DNA of 64,000 nucleotides, from positions 28,738 through 92,737 of the forward strand of contig CAZVZC010000002.1 in the NCBI GenBank assembly GCA_964631415.1, read 5' to 3'. A model generated the notes under the pieces. The model was not told the DNA's origin and ran no database searches. It worked only from the letters and a program-made list of their open reading frames with translations. Positions 28,252 through 32,124 of this stretch are shown here, in pieces. Numbering within the stretch: position 1 is the first letter of the stretch; each line of letters opens with the position of its first letter. Source of the stretch: an uncultured archaeon. GTDB lineage: Archaea; Asgardarchaeota; Thorarchaeia; Thorarchaeales; Thorarchaeaceae. Position numbers and translations under genes: made by a program.

Positions 28252-28835
28252 ATCTCAAAGGGGGGGAGTGCTAAGAACATTCCTGACACGCGTTTCGGTC
28301 ATTTCATAAGTGCGAATGCTGTACAGACAGCAGGCGGTCAATGAGGCGGTTACCCCTGTCTGAGCTGTGAGCAATGACGAACCAAGAGCTTGCTGAGACT
28401 CGCCACCTTGAACTTATCGTGACTTGGTTGGTTGAAACCTGCCTGCCTAAGAAACAGCAGCGAGCCAACAGGCACAGCCAGCTGTCTTGCGATGAGTGGT
28501 CACGGCGACCCGAGTCCCCAATGACGCATCCCCAAAATGGGTCGCATCCATCTCATCATCTCTGGCACCTGAACTTGGCCCCTGCGCATGAAACAAGCAG
28601 GCCTCAACCATTGTGTCGAGCTCCAGGAAGCTATGATAGCGCGTAGCGGAAGGTTCGCGCAATAGCACAAGCCCGCCGAGAGTATATATAGCTGAGAGTG
28701 CCGGAAACAGCCCTAGAAAGGCTCAGACGTGCTCCCTGAAAGGTCACACATCATGTTGGTTGCCATGTGAAAAGAACTGCGGAAAACACAGACATTCCAC
28801 AGCCATGGAACTTAACAAACGGACAATGGACGAAC

Positions 28836-29039
28836 TCACTTGACCCGGAGTCCCTTGCTCTCAATGCTTGATCCAGCGAAGGGCGCTACGGTAAGAACAC
28901 CGTTCTTTCGCGATAGAGCCACCTTCTCTGACCCGGTGTCTATGACAACAGTTTCCCCCTCAGCGACAAATGCCCCGGTGTCGGCCGCGCATATCTTCTT
29001 CAAGATATCCTTGAGACATGACGAGTAACTCTCTGCCAC
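28836..29039 (-). CDS. Small hypothetical protein (67 aa)
   Basis: Protein-like composition downstream of the aldolase-Fae genes; no family recognised. Confidence 0.55.
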   Translation of the reverse strand: MAESYSSCLKDILKKICAADTGAFVAEGETVVIDTGSEKVALSRKNGVLTVAPFAGSSIESKGLRVK

Positions 29040-29171
29040 ATTTGAGGCATCCTAATTGGATGTGGTGACGCGTTTTGGCCTTTATCCGTGTAGGAGAGTT
29101 TCGCTTATAGAAGCATCTATGTCGTACCTATTAGATACGGCCTGCCAACGTCGTTCCTCCAATCGACTTGG

Positions 29172-30650
29172 CTACGGATTGTAGGCGAACGGATGCCGCG
29201 CAGACTCCCTTCTTGCCATGATCTCTTCTACTGACTGCCTTCGCTCTAGCGCGTGGCGTATAGCATATCTCACTGCGCGGAAGTTGTTGTAGAAGACCCT
29301 ACGTGGATTGTTGGCGTTCGGATGCACGAAAACGCTGACCGCAATGATGAGGTCAGGTACTAGCTCCTCAGGAATCATCCTATCCGTGATGGTCCTCGTG
29401 ACAGCATCTGCCACGGCCTTCTGGGCAGTTTCATAGACCATCTTTCTGTGGCGCTCACCTGTGATGGCGACAGTTGATGCGAAGACAGTTGTGGGACGCA
29501 CGTCTTTGACGATGTTCGACGAGTGGAATCCATCGACGAGTTTTCCTGAATTCGCCACCGCGGCTTGGAGTGGTCCATCCTTCAGACCCATCACAAGGTC
29601 GATATGAGCAACTTCAAGCGCCTCACCGCACAGAGCTTCTCCATGAAGAAGTGTGAGATCATCGATGACATCTCTTGTCATTCCTACGGCCTTGGGATAG
29701 GCTTCAGCCACGAGTGAGCGGTTGCCCATCTTGTAGGTCACGGGACCGCGTGGAATGAGCTGAAGGTCCTCGAGGAGAGCTCTCAACTCATCGATCTCAT
29801 CATAAGCCAGCAGATCACCGTCCATCAAGGGCATTCGCGCCTTGCCCACAGGGACTCCCATCATGTTGAGAGCTGCCTTGACCGCAAGGCCTCCACCCTT
29901 TACAAGAACCTTGACTGTCCTTTGGATGCTACGTTGGATGAGCCTCGCTTCCTTCAGGTCGCCCTGAGAGAGGTCGGTCATGATTCTCAAATAACGATCC
30001 AAGAAGACATTCGCGCTCGCCAGTACGGCTCCGTCACAACCCGCTGCAAGTGCAGGCAGTGCAATCTCGTCGTGGCCAACGACAATCTGAAACTCCTCTG
30101 GCCGACGGATTAGAATGCTCATGAGATTGATCATGTCGCCGCTAGAGTCCTTCATCCCAACGATACCGTCAATCTCACGGAGACCATCGACCAGCCACCA
30201 GTCGAGATTGACGCCAGTGACCTGTGGAAAGTTGTAGAGGAAGATTGGCAGTTCGCTAGAGCCTGCCACCTTCTCAAAGTGCTCGTAGATCTCCTTGGTG
30301 GATGGTTTCAGGTAGTATGGTGATATGACAAGGGCCGCAGACGCACCAAGTTCTGCAGCTTTTCGAGTGAGCTTGACGGCATCGTTCGTGTACGCGGCAC
30401 CGGTCCCGGCGAGGACAGGTACACGTCCCTTTGCTGCTTCACACGCGATGCGCAAAGCCTCTAGACGCTCCTCAAAGCTCATGTTTGTGAATTCGCCTGT
30501 CGAGCCACATGGAACAATGCCAGTGGCCCCAGCCTTGATGACATGGTCGATGAGACCCCGGTACTGCTGCTCGTTGACCCCATTCTCGTCGAAGGGTGTG
30601 ACAAGTGCTGGGTACACACCTTTGAACCGCCAAGAACTCCTTGACACCAT
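29172..30650 (-). CDS. DapA/NanA-family class I aldolase fused to a C-terminal formaldehyde-activating enzyme (Fae) domain, copy B
   Basis: GSTGEF, YNFP and GMKDSSG (Schiff-base Lys); C-terminal GEAL.G...EVAHIDL..G, VFVH, HPF Fae motifs; GGAGGTGA SD before ATG 30650. Confidence 0.88.
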   Translation of the reverse strand: MVSRSSWRFKGVYPALVTPFDENGVNEQQYRGLIDHVIKAGATGIVPCGSTGEFTNMSFEERLEALRIACEAAKGRVPVLAGTGAAYTNDAVKLTRKAAELGASAALVISPYYLKPSTKEIYEHFEKVAGSSELPIFLYNFPQVTGVNLDWWLVDGLREIDGIVGMKDSSGDMINLMSILIRRPEEFQIVVGHDEIALPALAAGCDGAVLASANVFLDRYLRIMTDLSQGDLKEARLIQRSIQRTVKVLVKGGGLAVKAALNMMGVPVGKARMPLMDGDLLAYDEIDELRALLEDLQLIPRGPVTYKMGNRSLVAEAYPKAVGMTRDVIDDLTLLHGEALCGEALEVAHIDLVMGLKDGPLQAAVANSGKLVDGFHSSNIVKDVRPTTVFASTVAITGERHRKMVYETAQKAVADAVTRTITDRMIPEELVPDLIIAVSVFVHPNANNPRRVFYNNFRAVRYAIRHALERRQSVEEIMARRESARHPFAYNP

Positions 30651-30652
30651 TG

Positions 30653-32053
30653 TCACCTCCATACCTGACCTAGCGCAGCCGACACTGCATTCTCAGTGGC
30701 GGCAGTAATCGCTCGCCGGTCAATCGCATCCAGATCGACGTCAAGGGCCATCACTATGACTTCTCCATTGATGGCATCCTCAGGTATCTTCCCTGCACGG
30801 AGATGAGTGACCACTGCCTTGGCTGCTCCAGACTGAACCGGGCCGTAGAAGAGCGACGCCTGGCGCAAAGACTCTATCTTCCTAGCAGGCAACATGATAC
30901 TTGTCGGTCGCACTGCAAGGTTGGGCTCTAGAATTACACTTAGAGCCTCATGACCAACTCTGGGCGTCGTCAATAGCTGAACGAACGCCGCACCCAGTGG
31001 ACCGGTCTTGGGCCCGCTGACTATGCTCGCAGCCACAGTCTGGTTCGAGCCCCTCCCAAACTTCAAGCTGCCATGCTGCTGGGCGGTTACTCCAACCTCA
31101 GCAAGAGACGTGGCAATGTCAACATCCTTTGACGGCGGAGTGTGCTTGACACCCTTGAGTAGTCCAAGCTTTTCAAGTTCTACCCGTATCTCATCCTTGA
31201 GTTCAGGAGTGAGTGTTCCCCCCGAGTTGAGAGGCATGCGTGATTTCCCGGCATCGATACCCATCATCTTCAATGCTGCTTTGACAGGTGGAGCACCGCC
31301 ATACCTTGTCACTATGCGAGCTAGGGTCTGCATTGAAAGCTGCAGTCTGGCGGCTCCTTCAATGTCACCCTTCTGCACCTTCTTCATGACATCGAGCCAC
31401 AGGTGGGGCATGATGTTGCCCGAGGCCATGATTGCAGCCCTCACACCTGCCGCGACTGCTGAGAGGAAGCATTCGTCGTGCCCTATGATGACCGGAATAC
31501 GGTCCTTGAGCTTCTGGATGAGTTCGAGAGTGTAGCCTATGTTGCCACTGCTATCCTTGATGCCCACAATGTTGTCAATTTCTGCAAGGTCTTCCACGAC
31601 GTTCGGTTGAAGGATTCCCAGAGTACACTGGGGGATGTTGTAGAGTATGACTGGCAGGTTTCCTTGGTTGGCAACTGCCGCAAAATGCTCGAAGTAGCCC
31701 TTGTCGTTCGGTTTCAAGTAGAACGGAGAAACAACGAGAGCAGCATCACATCCGACCTCAGCTGCGTACCTCGTGAGAGCGATTGTCCCCTTCGTGCTGT
31801 TTTGACCTGTGCCCGCGATCACAGGAACACGGCCATCGACAAACTCGACCGTCAGCTTCAACAGCTTCTTGCGCTCCTCCGTTCGCATGTAGACAAACTC
31901 GCCAGTGGTGCCGGCAGGCACAACGCCTGTTGCACCCTTACTGATGGTGTAATCTATGATTTGACGGAAGCTGTCCTCCATAATGTCACCGTCCTTTGTA
32001 AACGGAGTAACGAGGGCAGGCATCACTCCTTTGGGAACGAACTTCCTTGGCAT
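30653..32053 (-). CDS. DapA/NanA-family class I aldolase fused to a C-terminal Fae-like domain, copy A
   Basis: GTTGEF, YNIP and GIKDSSG; C-terminal GP..GP.G.AF, GHEAL..ILEPNL..RP, FYGPVQ Fae motifs. Confidence 0.88.
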   Translation of the reverse strand: MPRKFVPKGVMPALVTPFTKDGDIMEDSFRQIIDYTISKGATGVVPAGTTGEFVYMRTEERKKLLKLTVEFVDGRVPVIAGTGQNSTKGTIALTRYAAEVGCDAALVVSPFYLKPNDKGYFEHFAAVANQGNLPVILYNIPQCTLGILQPNVVEDLAEIDNIVGIKDSSGNIGYTLELIQKLKDRIPVIIGHDECFLSAVAAGVRAAIMASGNIMPHLWLDVMKKVQKGDIEGAARLQLSMQTLARIVTRYGGAPPVKAALKMMGIDAGKSRMPLNSGGTLTPELKDEIRVELEKLGLLKGVKHTPPSKDVDIATSLAEVGVTAQQHGSLKFGRGSNQTVAASIVSGPKTGPLGAAFVQLLTTPRVGHEALSVILEPNLAVRPTSIMLPARKIESLRQASLFYGPVQSGAAKAVVTHLRAGKIPEDAINGEVIVMALDVDLDAIDRRAITAATENAVSAALGQVWR

Positions 32054-32124
32054 ATTGACTCACCAGATTGTTGAGGCGGGTCTAGACGTTCGTTTATAAA
32101 TCTCAGCTTCCGGATATCCACGCA

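Follow-up and report, generated by a model that had tools for sequence, protein, structure and literature searches.

Two adjacent aldolase paralogs of a Thorarchaeota genome probably share one Fae-type active site divided between them

Introduction

Why would two neighbouring genes each carry an aldolase barrel fused to a Fae domain, when neither Fae domain has a complete set of active-site motifs? This question is raised by genes A and B of an uncultured archaeon, which lie next to each other in the window analyzed here (a 64,000-nt stretch, positions 28,738 to 92,737 of contig CAZVZC010000002.1 in assembly GCA_964631415.1). The source genome is 85% complete and belongs to the Thorarchaeota (Asgard), the name carried by the closest homologs and loci. 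The original prediction, made from the sequence of the window, was that the two Fae domains keep complementary halves of the active-site motifs and would be active only as an A/B heteromer. Here we report a computational analysis of this idea. We conclude that A and B are probably two subunits of one enzyme, with a Fae-type site rebuilt where the two proteins meet.

Results

Gene A (30653..32053) encodes a protein of 466 amino acids (P0001) with a DHDPS-family aldolase barrel and a degenerate C-terminal Fae domain. Gene B (29172..30662) encodes 496 amino acids from its first ATG (P0002), again with a DHDPS-family aldolase barrel followed by a partial Fae domain. Both open reading frames (ORFs) lie on the minus strand, as do all features described within or directly upstream of them, and they overlap by 10 nt. 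Profile searches of A revealed a match to PF00701 (DHDPS, 261 bits) and then to PF08714 (Fae, 91.3 bits, covering only profile positions 13-134 of 159); the corresponding scores for B were 244 bits and 114 bits (profile positions 2-158). Both Fae scores exceed the PF08714 cut-off of 27 bits. Against the TIGR03126 equivalog cut-off of 118.05, B barely passed (119.5) and A failed (82.6). Both domains were present in all of the ~120 homologs of A (64-94% identity), and the homologs of B were mostly 491-492 amino acids long. A and B are the sole Fae matches and the sole DHDPS-family matches in the 85%-complete genome.

The motif states of the two Fae domains were read from alignments to M. extorquens Fae (PDB 1Y5Y/1Y60). 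The Fae domain of A (residues ~325-466; 30656..31081) contains VGHEALSVILEPNLAVRP and LFYGPVQ, and thus retains GHEAL...LEPNL and YGPVQ, the pterin-face half. It reads TVAASIV instead of EVAHIDL and stops ~30 residues short of the HPF tail. Missing from it are the His/Asp segment, FVH and the C-terminal arm. The Fae domain of B contains HGEALCGEALEVAHIDL, VFVHP and ARHPFAYNP, and thus retains GEAL...AHIDL, FVHP and the RHPF tail, the catalytic-face half. It reads MVYETAQ instead of FGPAQ and has a gap at APNLP, a deletion of 5-6 residues that removes the PNL loop; the Gly-Pro of GPxQ is lost as well. The segment corresponding to His22 and Asp24 of Fae (AHIDL) was therefore found in B only, with A reading AASIV and the His lost in all A types, and invariant LEPNL and YGPVQ were found in A only. 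Jointly, A and B hold GEAL, AH.DL, GH, PNL, GPxQ, VF.H and HPF. All motif strings first quoted for A and B were borne out by these alignments, with the one nuance that the loss of GP.Q in B of Thorarchaeota is confined to its Gly-Pro.

The same reciprocal losses were present in the homologous pairs, at every paired locus of three phyla (Thorarchaeota, Bathyarchaeia and Chloroflexota). In A, the columns invariant across phyla were E, L, E-P-(N)-L, P, P, R-Q-A, G and Q. They fall in part in GHEALSVILEPNLAVRP (residues 367-383; 30905..30955), which is invariant or nearly so in the three phyla, and in YGPVQ (residues 403-407; 30833..30847), the Gln of which is equivalent to Gln88 of Fae. In B, the invariant columns were E (of GEAL), A-H-x-D-L, G, G-P, T, F-V-H, A, R, N-N and R-H-P..Y.P. 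These include the motif GEALCGEALEVAHIDL (residues 341-356; 29595..29642), in which His353 and Asp355 are the equivalents of His22 and Asp24, together with FVHP (residues 445-448; 29319..29330), which shows no variation in the B family and is missing from A, and the C-terminal arm RHPF (residues 489-492; 29187..29198), likewise invariant and without a counterpart in A. Some decay was lineage-specific: GH and YGPA persist in B of Bathyarchaeia, and the Asp and HP persist in A of Chloroflexota. From the alignments, we consider that the reciprocal pattern is not due to chance, since it recurs in every paired locus of three phyla and the columns concerned are invariant there.

To describe the distribution of the pair, loci were scanned using one genome per species, and 79 related loci were returned. 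Wherever the contig extended far enough upstream, A immediately preceded B on the same strand; this applied to ~54 loci from Thorarchaeota, 15 from Chloroflexota (Anaerolineae) and 2 from Bathyarchaeia. All loci with B only were at contig ends. Three Bathyarchaeia loci (L060, L061 and L063) carried a single aldolase-Fae fusion gene instead of a pair, and in the consensus table these single copies kept every canonical motif. No degenerate copy was seen on its own where the contig permits the check, and the sole single-copy fusions were complete in their motifs, as an obligate pairing would predict. Since the single-copy fusions have a complete Fae domain, the split is not required by the fusion itself; this bears on the further suggestion in the original prediction that dividing the site could resolve a clash between 5-fold (Fae) and 4-fold (DapA family) symmetry. 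Pfam Fae scores were 200-217 bits for the single copies, 119-150 bits for the pairs of Bathyarchaeia and Chloroflexota, and 91-117 bits for those of Thorarchaeota. Within the family to which the window belongs, Fae matches were identified in 78/85 genomes, with exactly two matches in ~69 of them; the genomes with one match were mostly incomplete. None of the Fae matches in these 85 genomes came near the E-value of ~1e-70 seen for the Fae-Hps genes of other Asgard families. The pair thus represents the only Fae-type domains of these Thorarchaeota.

A tree of Fae domains was rooted on free Fae and Fae-Hps. The aldolase-fused Fae domains formed a single clade (support 94), within which there was an A clade and a B clade (support 98* for each), and both of these held sequences from Thorarchaeota, Bathyarchaeia and Chloroflexota. 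The single copies were basal and had short branches. Because the A and B clades each span three phyla and the single copies are basal, this topology points to one duplication before the split, followed by reciprocal loss and then by spread of the pair as a unit. Independent reciprocal loss in each phylum was ruled out by the same topology.

We also modelled the complex of the A Fae domain (residues 300-466) with the B Fae domain (residues 303-496), each with its family alignment. This analysis gave an ipSAE of 0.89 in three runs, compared with 0.00 for the best of 3 controls; the mark applied to this score was reached by 58/80 solved complexes and by 2/110 mismatched pairs. Contact agreement between runs was at least 90%, and the predicted local distance difference test score (pLDDT) of the partner was at least 87. 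Binding of the two Fae domains is thus supported by the model. The modelled interface is heterologous. On the A side it is formed by helix 1, GHEAL-ILEPNLAV (including GHEALSVILEPNLAVRP) and GP-Q-SG..AK, with the Gly, Pro and Gln of YGPVQ in contact. On the B side it is formed by the GEAL strand, His353 and Asp355, the GP turn, the T.T strand, residues flanking FVHP, the C-terminal helix and the RHPF arm, which contacts A. Acharya et al. reportedly described in 2005 that methylene-tetrahydromethanopterin (methylene-H4MPT) sits in the cleft between adjacent Fae subunits, with His22 as the acid catalyst, a Gln88 that flips and a C-terminal arm that becomes ordered. In our model, the equivalents of His22, Gln88 and the C-terminal arm lie across the A:B interface. 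The two solved entries, 1Y5Y and 1Y60, hold 10 chains, consistent with a Fae pentamer.

The modelled interface was enriched in conserved columns (17/30 for A, P = 2e-4; 18/48 for B, P = 0.02). When the columns conserved in canonical Fae were assigned to the two faces, those found on the A face only were kept at 10/14 positions in A and 2/14 in B, and those on the B face only at 4/14 positions in A and 11/14 in B (Fisher P = 0.06 and 0.002). Lineage-balanced conservation showed the same trend, with values of 0.67 on the own face versus 0.27 on the other face for the A family (P ~1e-7), and 0.76 versus 0.39 for the B family (P ~1e-8). The retained residues therefore segregate by interface face in the model of the two Fae domains, as the original prediction required. 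The unused faces drift, with a loop deletion in B and loss of the arm in A. In the model, selection on each family is thus confined to the side that contacts its partner, as would fit a composite site with a single A:B orientation. A further implication may be that a closed Fae ring can no longer form.

The aldolase barrels showed no such reciprocal decay. In all lineages, both retain GTTGEF, YNIPQ, KDSSG with its Schiff-base Lys, GHDE and LASAN, and the catalytic Lys, Tyr and Thr motifs are kept in both. In A, the barrel (residues 8-277; 31223..32032) reads GTTGEF, YNIPQ, GIKDSSG and GHDE; in B (residues 13-285; 29808..30626) it reads GSTGEF, YNFPQ, GMKDSSG and GHDE. Public records for the homologs of A and B are named DapA, a name that follows from TIGR00674 scores just above the cut-off (231.9 and 223.2 bits versus 206.15). 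The position of the DapA substrate Arg, which we take to be Arg138 in E. coli numbering, was compared with solved DHDPS sequences: these read LYNVPGRS, and A reads LYNIPQCT, with Cys in place of the Arg. The corresponding residue is Val in B and Val or Cys in the B family. The 85%-complete genome contained no match to Semialdhyde_dhC (Asd), which was found in 14/14 reference genomes used as controls, and no match to DapB_C (DapB), found in 11/14 of them. A further difference between the barrels concerns the second aromatic residue of the PYY motif (SPFYLKP in A, SPYYLKP in B), which reaches the site of the partner in DHDPS dimers. This residue is Tyr in A and mostly Phe in B of Thorarchaeota, and the assignment is reversed in Chloroflexota. 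The difference could be a second, lineage-specific asymmetry, located in the aldolase dimer.

We also examined the pathways that surround the pair. Mch (PF02289), a marker of the H4MPT pathway, was identified in this genome (411 bits) and in the Bathyarchaeia carriers. Homoserine dehydrogenase was found in 3/58 genomes of the family at a completeness of at least 85%, and in 1/31 at a completeness of at least 92%, compared with 76/127 genomes in the rest of the phylum and 14/14 controls. The enzyme was missing in about half of the largest other Asgard family. The genome of the window contains ThrC (threonine synthase homologs). Threonine synthase homologs are thus kept in a genome that lacks Asd and DapB and belongs to a family in which almost all members are without homoserine dehydrogenase.

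The gene junction was inspected at the sequence level. It reads GGT CAG GTA TGG AGG TGA CA ATG (30648..30662), and the TGA stop codon of A (30655-30653) lies inside GGAGGTGA (30660-30653), a Shine-Dalgarno sequence that overlaps this stop codon 2 bases upstream of the second ATG of B (30650-30648). The first ATG of B (30662-30660) overlaps the 3' end of A. B probably starts at the second ATG at 30650, giving 492 amino acids, because GGAGGTGA is just upstream of it and most homologs are 491-492 amino acids long. The sequence TTTATAAA (32093..32100), located ~40 nt upstream of the ATG of A, is TATA-like as read from the sequence; inspection of the region between A and B revealed no comparable signal and no gap. 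This arrangement suggests that A and B are on one transcript. With the Shine-Dalgarno/stop overlap and the TATA-like signal upstream of A, the two genes look like a single translationally coupled unit.

Analysis of neighbouring genes revealed different surroundings in different lineages. In Thorarchaeota, synteny extends over an M20 peptidase, AlaX, CutA and coiled-coil proteins, and looks inherited, not functional. Downstream of B, the gap at 28252-29171 (~900 bp) contains no long ORF, and no Rfam family or tRNA was found in it; a 67-amino-acid ORF (28836-29039, minus strand) shows a weak likeness (32% over 50 amino acids) to an ORF downstream of B in other Thorarchaeota loci. In Chloroflexota and Bathyarchaeia, a gene of 316 amino acids lies directly upstream of the A-B pair with 65% identity between phyla (L067:3179-4126, L062:3496-4443, also L065, L066, L072 and L076; divergent in L063). 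Its product gave no Pfam, NCBIfam or PDB match except for a faint Peptidase_U32 hint, and the gene is absent from the genome of the window; outside Thorarchaeota, it may encode an additional part of the system. Members of a family of ~430 amino acids, without a family match, adjoin the fusion genes in some Chloroflexota loci and single-copy Bathyarchaeia loci (L077:3227-4543, L073:2778-4043, L060:4646-5926 and L061:4645-5982). In Chloroflexota, A and B are separated by a xylose-isomerase-like TIM barrel gene at two loci (L066:3537-4400 and L076:3482-4363), and a transaldolase/fructose-6-phosphate aldolase gene is found two genes upstream at two others (L067:2336-3076 and L072:2740-3483); these neighbours hint at a link to sugar metabolism.

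Discussion

Our data favour an explanation of the A-B pair as a composite enzyme. Its history would have begun with a single duplication of an ancestral gene in which the aldolase was joined to an intact Fae domain, and the ancestral form would persist as the single gene of some Bathyarchaeia. Because the Fae site is placed in the cleft where two subunits adjoin, one face could be dispensed with in each copy. B would have kept the catalytic face (GEAL, the His and Asp of AHIDL, FVHP and the RHPF arm), and A the opposite, pterin-binding face (GHEAL-LEPNL and YGPVQ), such that a complete Fae-type site would arise only from the A:B contact in one orientation. Translational coupling should yield equal amounts of the two proteins. 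What would be expected of paralogs that share a site was found: strict co-occurrence, complementary retention by face (with the faces taken from the model) and an ancestor with both faces. Domain content, motif states, co-occurrence, the single duplication and conservation by face are direct results of the analysis; from them, an obligate heteromer with a composite site is a well-supported prediction, and its substrates and reaction direction are more tentative proposals.

Several observations weigh against this explanation. In B of Thorarchaeota, the Gln of GPxQ is retained and the Gly-Pro alone is lost. The modelling covered the A/B pairing only, and the high score may reflect likeness to the solved Fae homopentamer; even as recall of the Fae pentamer, the model would tell which elements meet in a Fae-type contact. 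Since the model, and not the 1Y60 coordinates, defined the faces, there is some circularity in the face test. As the tree indicates a single duplication, the three phyla are not independent replicates of the loss: they represent one event and not three. Shared losses may contribute in part to the grouping of the A and B clades. The conserved neighbours hold no clear functional clue, and those shared across phyla have no family match. Finally, Mch was not found in two Chloroflexota carriers, and the ligand may not be H4MPT everywhere.

The first alternative is that the A:B complex exists but its site is not composite, with B carrying the working site and the Fae domain of A acting as a structural or regulatory pseudoenzyme. 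A is indeed the more degenerate of the two, keeping 26/63 of the columns conserved in canonical Fae compared with 40/63 in B, and its Fae domain has the lower Pfam score and the longer tree branch. However, the residues that A retains are exactly the canonical Fae motifs lost by B and not an arbitrary surface; its E, P, L, P, RQA, G and Q do not vary in the three phyla; and a site made by B alone, with its deletion at the PNL loop, would miss half of the conserved Fae cleft. We judge this alternative improbable. We give a similarly small chance to the idea that A and B act independently and form no heteromer, each Fae domain having taken a new role such as ligand sensing or another reaction. 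Both barrels look intact and each protein could be a working aldolase alone, which, like the separation of the genes at two Chloroflexota loci, would suit independent action. It is countered by the strict co-occurrence and fixed gene order in three phyla, by the overlapping genes with their coupling junction, by the complementary, non-overlapping nature of the retained faces, and by an A/B complex model that passes its controls.

With regard to function, the composite enzyme would most likely couple a pyruvate-type aldol reaction to a one-carbon (C1) unit on H4MPT. This proposal follows from the barrels, which keep the pyruvate-dependent Schiff-base lysine machinery without the DapA-specific Arg. 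By analogy to Fae-Hps, a class I pyruvate aldolase joined to Fae would most plausibly exchange a C1 unit between methylene-H4MPT and a 2-oxo acid. Our best guess for the reaction is pyruvate + formaldehyde (from or to methylene-H4MPT) <-> 4-hydroxy-2-oxobutanoate. A third alternative, to which we likewise assign a low probability, accepts the complex but holds that the Fae-derived site has given up formaldehyde and H4MPT for some other pterin or metabolite, for instance in an allosteric or channelling role within an aldolase that acts on a different substrate. It would account for the two Chloroflexota genomes that carry the pair and have no Mch match, and for Chloroflexota neighbours that include a transaldolase/fructose-6-phosphate aldolase and a xylose-isomerase-like barrel. 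The GHDE motif, moreover, resembles GYDE, which we take to be the sugar-binding motif of sialic acid lyases. Set against this are the invariance of the catalytic His, the Asp and the Gln88 equivalent, the occurrence of Mch in the Thorarchaeota and Bathyarchaeia carriers, and the lack of any other Fae in Thorarchaeota. The remaining alternative, that A and B are true DapA (4-hydroxy-tetrahydrodipicolinate synthase) isozymes as their public names and TIGR00674 scores would have it, is hardly credible and was ruled out, since the aspartate-semialdehyde-binding Arg is replaced by Cys in A (YNIPQC) and Val in B (YNFPQV) and the 85%-complete genome has no Asd, no DapB and no other DHDPS-family gene.

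The proposed H4MPT-linked reaction has a counterpart in the engineered homoserine cycle, in which pyruvate and formaldehyde give 4-hydroxy-2-oxobutanoate, a non-native intermediate that is then transaminated to homoserine (PMC8879981). The aldolase step of that cycle, carried out by the promiscuous E. coli RhmA, is the same reaction as the one proposed for A and B; it differs in being a laboratory design that employs a class II aldolase and free formaldehyde, whereas in A/B a naturally occurring class I aldolase would work with a pterin carrier. A tentative extension, which we consider somewhat unlikely, is that A/B acts as a natural H4MPT-linked pyruvate:C1 aldolase through its composite Fae site and replaces the aspartate-semialdehyde/homoserine-dehydrogenase route to homoserine and threonine in Thorarchaeota; such a bypass is not otherwise known except from laboratory design. 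The lack of Asd and the presence of ThrC in this genome are consistent with it. The distribution of homoserine dehydrogenase agrees with this extension inside Thorarchaeota and is mixed elsewhere: the enzyme is present in 2/5 carriers outside Thorarchaeota, which counts against replacement, as does the failure to find a canonical ThrB.

Both parts of these proteins belong to known families; the novelty lies in their being fused and in the apparent partition of a single interfacial site over two paralogs. A literature search found no published description of an aldolase-Fae or DapA-Fae fusion or of its split site. The Fae domains of A and B share their fold family with Fae (M. extorquens; PF08714, TIGR03126, EC 4.2.1.147), a free-standing homo-oligomer with both faces on each subunit. 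In A/B, by contrast, the faces reside on two polypeptides, each fused to an aldolase barrel; a loop is deleted from B, and the C-terminal arm is missing from A. Archaeal Fae-Hps (NF009833), the usual form of Fae in other Asgard families, likewise joins a Fae domain to an enzyme that releases or uses formaldehyde, suggesting direct hand-over of the C1 unit. Its Fae domain is N-terminal, complete and linked to hexulose-phosphate synthase, whereas that of A/B is C-terminal, split over paralogs and linked to a DHDPS-family class I aldolase; the NF009833 scores of A and B (62.7 and 91.3 bits) were far under the cut-off of 274, with only the Fae part matched. The barrels have GTTGE, YN.P and the KDSSG Lys in common with the DHDPS/NAL class I aldolases (DapA, NanA, YagE/YjhH and KDG aldolases; PF00701) and ~40% identity to solved DHDPS structures, but differ in lacking the substrate Arg, in the family-specific YNIPQ and GHDE motifs, in the C-terminal Fae domain and in a genome without a diaminopimelate pathway. 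Paralog heteromers with shared, half-degenerate sites occur in trypanosomatids, where deoxyhypusine synthase and AdoMetDC/prozyme are active only as heteromers. They too go back to duplication of an enzyme with an interfacial site and to later loss of catalytic residues. Those cases involve unrelated folds and organisms, and there one paralog is mainly 'dead', in contrast to the reciprocal losses by face in A/B.

The pair would offer a clean natural example of an interfacial site divided between paralogs by reciprocal loss, with an undivided form of the ancestor extant for comparison. Hundreds of public records name these proteins DapA, which is wrong for an organism without Asd and DapB, and the A/B pair underlies the published reconstructions in which 'Fae' or 'DapA' is counted for Thorarchaeota. 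Should pyruvate and a C1 unit prove to be the aldolase substrates, the pair would be a ready-made part for synthetic C1 assimilation and, in these organisms, a new natural link from the Wood-Ljungdahl H4MPT pool to C4 amino-acid precursors.

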